Origin: Planctomycetota bacterium
GTDB lineage: Bacteria > Planctomycetota > SZUA-567
Direction of reading: 5' to 3'
DNA length: 28,812 nucleotides
NCBI GenBank assembly: GCA_031547475.1
Contig: JAVBRW010000421.1
Span: 1 to 28,812, forward strand
Of the stretch, positions 1-1,526 are shown in pieces. The translations under genes and the position numbers were made by a program. The notes below the pieces were generated by a model. It was not told the origin of the DNA. It was given only the letters and a program-made list of their open reading frames with translations, and ran no database searches. The stretch's first letter is position 1. The number at the start of each line of letters is the position of its first letter.

Positions 1-156
1 TAGTATCCGATTCCTGTTCGTCCCGTCCGAGTTTTGCCGCCGGCTTCCTTCACACACCGCGTTACCGCGACGCATTGGCCTTGGGCTAGCGATTCCGTTT
101 CACCACGGCTCGCAGAGGACTCTAACCTCATTAGACGTACGTCGTGCCCGGCGTAC
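1..156 (-). mobile_element. 5' end (domain I) of a probable class C group II intron, running off the left edge of the window
   Basis: The minus strand from 156 reads GTACGCCGGGCACG...GAGGTTAGAGTCCT...GCGTCGCGGTAACGCGGTGTGTGAAGGAAGCCGGCGGCAAAACTCGG...GAACAGGAA. This parallels, in order, the IIC domain I landmarks as I recall them from B. halodurans/O. iheyensis introns: GUGCGCCCGGCA start, GUGAAAGUCC, GNRA-capped Ic stem, UGAAGGAAGC and GGCAAA. The site also lies 7 nt downstream of a stem-loop, as expected for IIC. The RT ORF and domains V-VI are not in the window. Confidence 0.8.
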
Positions 157-163
157 AATAGGA

Positions 164-182
164 GGGTCATTGTCAACGACCC
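164..182 (-). terminator. Stem-loop immediately upstream of the intron insertion site (IIC-type target hairpin)
   Basis: Minus strand GGGTCGTT-GAC-AATGACCC forms an 8-bp stem with one G-U pair, followed by TCCTATT and then the intron 5' end. Confidence 0.6.
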
Positions 183-268
183 GAGAGAGAAAACAAGGTG
201 GGTATCGCCGGACGTTTACGAGAACCACTATGTTTTGGGTATACACCCGAAACCGGCAGCAACATTTA

Positions 269-328
269 GGAATTCGGGGACACGTAACGCAATTGAACCG
301 CCAATTGCGCAACATGTCCCCGAATTCC
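269..328. repeat. 60-bp imperfect palindrome (REP-like element)
   Basis: Arms 269-295 (GGAATTCGGGGACACGTAACGCAATTG) and 302-328 (CAATTGCGCAACATGTCCCCGAATTCC) are complementary at 24 of 27 positions around a 6-nt loop. Confidence 0.85.
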
Positions 329-416
329 CGAATACGATTGACAATGAATTATAGGCGGCTATCAATAGCATCACGGCCGGCGCGGCCATCGACAAACAAC
401 CCGGAGGGCTCAGACA

Positions 417-1526
417 ATGGAATATTACGAACATCCGTTGAAAGTCGGAGGCGAACGGGTGTGGCGCACGTGGCGCGGCGGCAGAACGCTGGACATCATT
501 CACGGCGTCTCCGATCCGAAAGACGGGCCTTTTCCCGAGGAATGGATGATTTCCACCACCCGCGCGGTCAACGCCGGGCGGGAGAATATCGAGGAAGGAC
601 TGTGCCGGCTGGCGGACGATCCGGCCCGCCCCACCCTCAAGGAAATCATCGGCGCGCATCCCGAAAAAATGCTCGGCCCCGCCCATGTCGCCGCACACGG
701 AACCGCGATGGGATTTCTGGTCAAGCTCCTGGACTCGCAGTCCCGGCTCCAGATTCAGGCCCATCCGGACAAGGAAACGGCCAGGCGCCTGTTCGACTCG
801 CCGTACGGCAAGACGGAATGCTGGCACATTCTCGCCCTCCGGGACGACGGCGACGAGCCGCCCGCCCTGTTCCTCGGCTTCCGCGAGGGCGCGGACAGGA
901 AAAAGCTGGAAGACCTTTTCCACCGCCAGGACAGCGCCGGCATGTTGGCCATGATGAACCGCATCTCGCCGAAAGCGGGCGAAACATACATTGTCCCCGG
1001 CGGCACGCCGCACGCCATCGGCCCCGGTTGTTTCATTGTCGAAATCCAGGAGCCGACCGATCTGACCATCCGGCTCGAGCGCACCAGCCCCAACGGCCCC
1101 GATCTGCCCGATCGCTCCATCCACAACGGCCTCGGATTCGATCGCATGTTCGAATGCTTCCGGTACGTCGGCGTTCCGGCCGACGAGGCGGCGGGCAAAT
1201 GGCTGATCCCGCCACGGATAATCAAAAAGACCGACTCCCACCTGATCGAATGCCTGGTCGGTTACGATGCGACGGATTTTTTCCGCATGGACAGACTGAC
1301 CATCGGCGGCGCCTTGTCCGCATCGGGAAAAGGCGGTTTTCATGGTATGTGTGTACTCGAAGGCAAGGGAAGAATGGAATACGACGGGATCCGCCTGCCG
1401 ATAGGGCAGTGGGATCAATTTTTCATTCCCTTCTCCTGCCGCGAATTCAGCATTGCCAATGACGGAACCGGCCCTTTGCGCATCATGCGTTTCATGGGAC
1501 CGAAGACGTCGCAAAGCTTTCAGTGA
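417..1526 (+). CDS. manA: Class I mannose-6-phosphate isomerase-like cupin protein
   Basis: 369 aa with PEEW, FLVKLLD, Zn-ligand motifs QAHP / KTECW / PHAIG and EIQEPTD; GGAGG RBS at 403-407. The sugar-phosphate substrate is not proven. Confidence 0.8.
   Translation: MEYYEHPLKVGGERVWRTWRGGRTLDIIHGVSDPKDGPFPEEWMISTTRAVNAGRENIEEGLCRLADDPARPTLKEIIGAHPEKMLGPAHVAAHGTAMGFLVKLLDSQSRLQIQAHPDKETARRLFDSPYGKTECWHILALRDDGDEPPALFLGFREGADRKKLEDLFHRQDSAGMLAMMNRISPKAGETYIVPGGTPHAIGPGCFIVEIQEPTDLTIRLERTSPNGPDLPDRSIHNGLGFDRMFECFRYVGVPADEAAGKWLIPPRIIKKTDSHLIECLVGYDATDFFRMDRLTIGGALSASGKGGFHGMCVLEGKGRMEYDGIRLPIGQWDQFFIPFSCREFSIANDGTGPLRIMRFMGPKTSQSFQ

Follow-up and report, generated by a model that had tools for sequence, protein, structure and literature searches.

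What is the short element that runs off the end of this contig, and why does the contig stop inside it? The window analysed here is a stretch of 28,812 nt (C283:1-28812) from a short-read MAG of 474 contigs, 75 % complete, and window position 1 is the contig end. From its letters, a preliminary description had read the first 156 nt, on the minus strand, as the 5′ end of a group IIC intron with a variant GUACG start. In a search of the window against the Rfam covariance models, RF02001 (group-II-D1D4-3) alone was found and no further family matched; its match spans window 71..1 with 51 bits and E = 1.1e-7 (gathering score 32), and is flagged as cut off on the RNA 3′ side, so that the covariance search proposed for this locus did return an intron model, truncated at the contig end. 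The same model scores 85.6 bits (E = 4.9e-17) on C229, the longest 5′ copy of the element in this genome (224 nt), and 110-126 bits on homologues. The match to RF02001 and eight sibling repeats identify window 156..1 (minus strand) as the first 156 nt of a group IIC (class C) intron, the 5′ part of domain I. Read on that strand, the sequence runs ...GGGTCGTTGACAATGACCC TCCTATT / GTACGCCGGGCACGACGTACG... to position 1, and all letters and coordinates of the landmarks named earlier (GTACG, the GTAA-capped stem, GGCAAA and others) check out. The features are as follows, all on the minus strand.

157..219: exon segment of 63 nt, with an intron-free paralogue at C120:4806-4868 (95 % identity)
164..182: 5′-exon stem-loop of 8 bp, including one G-U pair, with a 3-nt loop (RNAfold, -10.4 kcal/mol), ending 7 nt before the insertion point
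163..157: TCCTATT, between the hairpin and the intron
157..160: UAUU, the last four exon bases (IBS1 position)
1..156: 5′ part of the intron, domain I, by RF02001 and by siblings C229, C277, C115, C44 and C361 at 96-99 % identity
152..156: GUACG, the 5′ splice-site pentamer, at which the repeat unit begins in 9/9 copies
129..117: GAGGTTAGAGTCC, letters checked
115..129: GAGG/CCUC hairpin with UUAGAGU loop (IIC landmark RRGGUNANAGUCC), the motif being the survey pattern that recovered at least 82 IIC 5′ ends elsewhere
56..71: stem of 6 bp with a GUAA tetraloop (GNRA class), aligned to positions 1-16 of RF02001, where the consensus loop is GUGA
45..55: GUGUGAAGGAA, a bulge of 11 nt that is specific to IIC introns and contains AGGAA (the 'epsilon-prime region'), at unpaired positions 17-27 of RF02001
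38..33: GGCAAA, letters checked
22..11: GACGAACAGGAA, letters checked
1..10: UCGGAUACUA, a stem strand and the start of an internal (coordination-type) loop after GAACAGGAA by the RF02001 structure line, including GAUA at 7..4

The 11-nt AGGAA bulge is a hallmark of IIC introns (PMC1702495), and the boundary itself is of the class C type. Against the class C 5′ boundary consensus GUNYGCCNRGCAUGG (PMC4028801), the window 5′ end, GUACGCCGGGCACGA, agrees at all but two of 15 positions, having C where the consensus has U (position 13) and A where it has G (position 15); the sibling 5′ ends (...CACGG) agree at 14 of 15. The window copy carries a private substitution, reading CACGACG where all siblings read CACGGCG.

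As window position 1 is the contig end, the RT gene and domains V/VI cannot occur in the window; the RT had been expected outside it, rightly, given that contig C283 ends 156 nt into the intron. Eight other contigs carry this 5′ end at 96-99 % identity, each repeat starting exactly at the G of GTACG. On C229, C277, C115, C44 and C361 the 5′ segment lies at a contig end, and C229:68-122, identical to window bases 1-55, runs further into domain I; the copies on C36, C149 and C256 are truncated or have internal deletions, and were assembled through into unique DNA. All nine 5′ junctions begin GTACGCCGGGCACG, directly behind different hairpins, and the preceding exon base is U in every case. Matching 3′ ends were found on four further contig ends (C305, C340, C382 and C458), where RF00029 (domains V/VI, 47.4 bits) is preceded by the final 58 codons of a maturase ORF. 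These 3′ ends read ...GGCGGGAACCGCGAGGAACCCGCCUACUCGAU/U, with terminal CCUACUCGAU/U, and fit the class C 3′ boundary consensus CCUACYCGAU (PMC4028801). Their domain VI has a 3-bp basal helix and then G at -3, as in most IIC introns (PMC4748821), and their domain V (CCGCCGUAU...; conserved stretch CCGCCGTATGCC...) carries CGC in place of AGC, a IIC trait (PMC1702495). No intact RT gene of the GUACG-start intron family was found in the bin, where the RT remnants are a C-terminal stub of 58 aa and, in the deleted copy C149, an X-domain piece of 42 aa. Such a pattern is typical of a multicopy repeat in a short-read MAG, and intron copies account for the end points of this contig and of about ten others in the bin.

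We consider it very probable that window 156..1 belongs to a mobile, multicopy, hairpin-seeking group IIC intron, one copy of which begins here and was cut by the assembly. Such an intron would be a self-splicing ribozyme, normally with an RT/maturase gene in domain IV, and its family would have spread by retrotransposition, in this genome to at least nine sites, a few bases behind stem-loops that are mostly intrinsic terminators. With the repeat left unresolved by the assembler, the contig stops 156 nt into the intron, and the remaining ∼1.7 kb (judged from the complete homologue L030) is missing from the window and, for the most part, from the bin.

The analysis establishes the identity of the element, its copy number and boundaries, the pattern of its target sites and the position of EBS1. 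The window copy itself is probably complete, in which case it would be a full-length intron that may splice and be mobile. Somewhat unlikely, by our estimate, is that it is instead a dead 5′ fragment, truncated or internally deleted, and not the start of a complete intron. Three of the nine junctions in the genome do lead to defective copies (C36, of 107 nt; C256, of 35 nt; and the deleted C149), same-genus genomes also hold ORF-less or deleted copies (G008:C278 and G010:C28), and the CACGACG substitution is private to the window copy. Against a dead fragment, the window is colinear with the full-type copies over all 156 nt, and its first 55 bases are those that C229 carries on into domain I. 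Furthermore, a break at this place is what would be expected of a multicopy repeat, whereas the truncated copies were assembled through into unique DNA.

To place the family we turned to its homologues and their proteins. Homologues at 80-87 % identity are present in 4 of 11 other same-genus genomes, with a marginal match in a fifth, and the GUACG start is conserved in those of G001, G008, G010, L029 and L030. One junction (G001:C118, L016), …GCTGCCGCATATTT/GTACG, is identical to the junction in another Planctomycetota bacterium MAG (L109). Using the 58-aa C-terminal stub as a query we retrieved 427-aa proteins at 84-86 % identity, with whole introns on their contigs; the C-terminal stubs of the window's own genome are 86-88 % identical to one of these proteins (P0001). 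L030 is a complete homologue of 1,874 nt behind a hairpin, containing RF02001 (125.6 bits), RF01998 (66.6 bits), the 427-aa IEP and RF00029, and L029 is like it apart from an insertion of ∼95 nt. The IEP (P0005, P0001; 427 aa) has RVT_1 and GIIM domains and the YADD motif, with no endonuclease domain and no room for one, and clears TIGR04416 with 402 bits. Among solved structures its best relative is the GsI-IIC RT (6AR1; E = 6.6e-143); the IIC enzymes of E. rectale and R. intestinalis come next, whereas the IIA enzyme LtrA and a IIB enzyme are matched at only ∼1e-35. As the RNA models and the IEP relatives agree, the intron family was placed in class C.

The GUACG start, which had been presented as a departure from the usual pentamer, is present as described, but its novelty was overstated. 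The class C consensus leaves the third position free (GUNYG), and published primers at the 5′ ends of the IIC-attC introns G.s.I1 and Sh.ba.I2 begin GTACGCC (PMC3001079). We also surveyed one genome per species with the IIC 5′-end pattern, leaving positions 3 and 4 free; the 82 matches listed comprise GTGCG in 58 cases, GTGTG in 17, GTACG in five and GTTTG in two, and the GTACG cases among them come from Negativicutes, Planctomycetota and Gammaproteobacteria MAGs. From the consensus, the published introns and the survey cases, A at position 3 (A3) is a minority variant that was already known and has become fixed in this lineage, neither an error nor a novelty. As for a base that might compensate for it, we rejected pairing of intron nt 3-4 with the RU that opens the AGGAA bulge as the epsilon-prime partner, as GUGCG, GUGUG and Negativicutes GUACG introns all carry AAUCU there; among the survey matches listed, the AGGAA bulge showed no change shared across A3 lineages. 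A candidate partner for A3C4 is a GU that 9 of the 11 distinct A3 sequences carry at nt 15-20, in a register that shifts by one base between lineages, although the literature sets epsilon-prime in the bulge.

The sites occupied by the nine copies provide a within-genome illustration of IIC target choice. All nine lie 0-9 nt behind a hairpin, in keeping with the stem-loop noted earlier at the window junction, and two are just downstream of tRNA 3′ ends. The other eight copies follow strong, perfect, GC-rich hairpins with T-rich tails (-11 to -33 kcal/mol by RNAfold), and strong hairpins with T-tails are the usual sites of IIC introns (PMC1702495, PMC4424553). Class C introns insert behind intrinsic terminators or other stem-loops and show little sequence specificity. 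The window hairpin is the weakest of the nine (-10.4 kcal/mol). Its 8 bp, followed by TCCTATT, were confirmed as the 5′ exon, with the qualification that one pair is G-U; no T-run follows, and no terminator-like site was called at this hairpin. There is no same-strand gene upstream of the window intron, the nearest ORF (417-1526) being divergent. By the rule for IIC introns, the RNP would recognize the upstream hairpin.

These sites also bear on whether the intron belongs to the IIC-attC sublineage and targets attC-like sites rather than terminators, which we regard as very unlikely. G.s.I1 and Sh.ba.I2 share its GUACG start (PMC3001079), and a 13-protein IEP tree, small and with long branches, gave GUACG a single origin in 30 % of bootstrap trees and did not separate one origin from two. 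At eight of the nine sites, however, a perfect palindromic stem rich in GC leads into a T-run, in two cases behind a tRNA gene, and these are not the attC sites by which IIC-attC introns are defined.

The boundary at the window junction was fixed with an intron-free counterpart. The comparison with intron-free alleles that had been suggested yielded a paralogue, C120:4806-4868, and not an orthologous allele; it continues TTGGAGGGCGTATC-ATG exactly where the window has GTACG, and its divergence at that G fixes the 5′ boundary of the window intron. The intron-free joint predicted for an empty allele would run from ...CCTATT directly to TTGGAGGG. An assembly or binning chimera, with an intron stub misattached to the contig, is extremely improbable even for so fragmented a MAG (474 contigs, 75 % complete) and for repeats at contig tips, which misjoin readily, since the join falls at the intron's first base, 7 nt behind a hairpin and after U as in the other copies, at the very base where the C120 paralogue diverges, and a random misjoin would not respect an element boundary so exactly. 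In searches for further copies of the site, the 63-nt segment was found nowhere else in the genome besides the window and C120, and an identity search with the 63-nt leader and the C120 ORF returned only partial family matches of 25-40 nt. In related genomes only the isomerase-like neighbour was alignable (66-70 % identity) in the search for an orthologous empty site, and not the intergenic region; metagenomes scanned for the exact intron start, and for the exact exon site in filled or empty form, gave no match.

Class C introns use a short EBS1-IBS1 pairing (3-4 bp) made from a terminal loop, and have no EBS2/IBS2. The EBS1 had been assigned to GAUA (7..4), pairing with the exon end UAUU, and this assignment did not hold. 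In the RF02001 structure, GAUA closes one strand of a 6-bp stem and opens the internal loop after GAACAGGAA, a region in which IIB and IIC introns carry the coordination loop with EBS3 (PMC4024640). The motif at this site is nearly invariant (CAUA or GAUA) across surveyed IIC introns with different exon ends, and pairs with those ends at a mean of 1.29 of four positions versus 1.38 when exons are permuted. The EBS1 of IIC introns lies in the loop of a stem-loop (PMC4424553) and is 4 nt long (PMC4024640). In agreement with this, the four bases after 'GC' in a terminal hairpin loop covary with the last four exon bases, with a mean of 3.11 of four pairs over 28 distinct loop/exon combinations; the permuted-exon expectation is 1.99 ± 0.17 pairs, and 0 of 5000 permutations reached 3.11. 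The row for L027 in this table was mis-parsed by the regular expression, and by eye reads CUUG / GAAG, with three pairs. Examples of the combinations are as follows.

Terminal loop AUUA, exon end UAAU
Terminal loop ACAA, exon end UUGU
Terminal loop AAUA, exon end UAUU
Terminal loop CAUA, exon end UAUG
Terminal loop GACU, exon end AGUC
Terminal loop ACGA, exon end UCGU

Within the GUACG-start family, the first EBS1 base forms a Watson-Crick pair with exon position -1 as A-U in C229 and C149, C-G in L030 and L027, and U-A in L029. The covariation establishes the terminal-loop tetranucleotide as the true EBS1, which in the window copy would lie ∼200 nt into the intron and ∼45 nt beyond the contig end. 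Within the genome, the C229 loop AUUG makes three of four pairs with its exon end CCAU, and the C149 loop AAUG three of four with UUUU. The window exon end UAUU would pair at four of four positions with AAUG and at three of four with AUUG; the window's own loop lies beyond the contig end. Under the IIC rule, the domain ID hairpin would present a 4-nt EBS1 in its terminal loop for pairing with the last three to four exon bases, and a single EBS3-IBS3 pair would read the first 3′-exon base (U); among the survey matches listed, nearly all IIC 3′ exons begin with U.

Judging by the C120 paralogue, the window copy was inserted 14 nt ahead of a start codon and directly in front of the Shine-Dalgarno sequence GGAGGG. 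The corresponding locus (L157, C120:4806-4962) comprises the 63-nt leader, GGAGGG and an ORF starting MEPERARSRR, with the contig ending 94 nt later. From this arrangement we suggest, as an unlikely proposal, that the window copy may sit between a weak hairpin and GGAGGG in the 5′ leader of a gene and not behind a terminator, in which case expression of that gene would depend on splicing. An equally unlikely addition is that the EBS1 alleles AUUG and AAUG may coexist in one genome and split sites by the exon -2 base.

Compared with known systems, the window element is an ordinary member of the IIC kind, multicopy and hairpin-seeking. It resembles the terminator-homing IIC introns B.h.I1 (Bacillus halodurans), O.i.I1 (Oceanobacillus iheyensis) and GsI-IIC (Geobacillus stearothermophilus) in the RF02001 landmarks and AGGAA bulge, and the family resembles them in the CGC domain V, 3-bp domain VI base and CCUACUCGAU 3′ end (PMC1702495, PMC4748821). 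Further likenesses are the 4-nt terminal-loop EBS1, insertion behind U-run hairpins and many copies per genome, as well as, for GsI-IIC, the ∼427-aa En-less IEP closest to its RT. It differs from these three in having A at position 3 (GUACG) where they have G, in the domain V apical loop of the GUACG-start family (AUAAAA), in its Planctomycetota MAG host and in the absence of a U-run at the window's own site. With G.s.I1 (Geobacter sulfurreducens) and Sh.ba.I2 (Shewanella baltica) it has the GTACGCC start in common, compared through promoter-mapping primers alone (PMC3001079), but those introns are defined by insertion in integron attC sites whereas the copies here follow terminator-type hairpins. 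The window site resembles that of B.h.I1(X), a B.h.I1 copy behind a mispaired stem-loop that lacks a U-run. In both, the stem-loop is weak, the IBS1 is short and an extended U-run is missing; B.h.I1(X) gave no ligated exons in vitro (PMC1702495). The locus points to a retroelement family that was recently active in an uncultured lineage, probably a planctomycete one, and its value is mainly corrective, in that position 3 of class C introns varies and EBS1 belongs in the terminal loop, not beside GAACAGGAA.

Several minor observations were made on intron copies in this and related genomes. Incomplete reverse transcription usually leaves 3′ pieces, and 5′-only stubs are thus unusual; two were seen here, at C36:4176-4281 (107 nt) and C256:142-175 (35 nt), alongside an internally deleted copy that keeps a maturase fragment (C149:1-247). 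In a related genome, L025 (G008:C278) is an ORF-less mini-intron of ∼300 nt in which the start of domain I is joined to domains V/VI. The ∼95-nt insertion of L029 (L029:1197-1293) lies just 3′ of the domain I EBS1 hairpin and leaves the 427-aa IEP intact. The window's genome also holds a second, different domain V/VI (L013, G000:C48:494-609), matching RF00029 at 35 bits, below the cut-off, with the domain V loop GAAC.

Beyond the intron, window 417-1526 (+) holds an ORF of 369 aa, divergent from the intron, with weak Pfam matches to the catalytic and cupin domains of type I phosphomannose isomerase; a 444-aa minus-strand ORF overlapping it had no family match and looks spurious. Between this ORF and the intron, window 264-333 (core 269-328) is a palindromic, REP-like repeat of ∼60 bp with 32-nt arms that are 84 % complementary. 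More than 40 copies of this repeat are spread over many contigs of the genome, often in pairs that face each other across ∼100 nt; two same-genus genomes have weaker copies.
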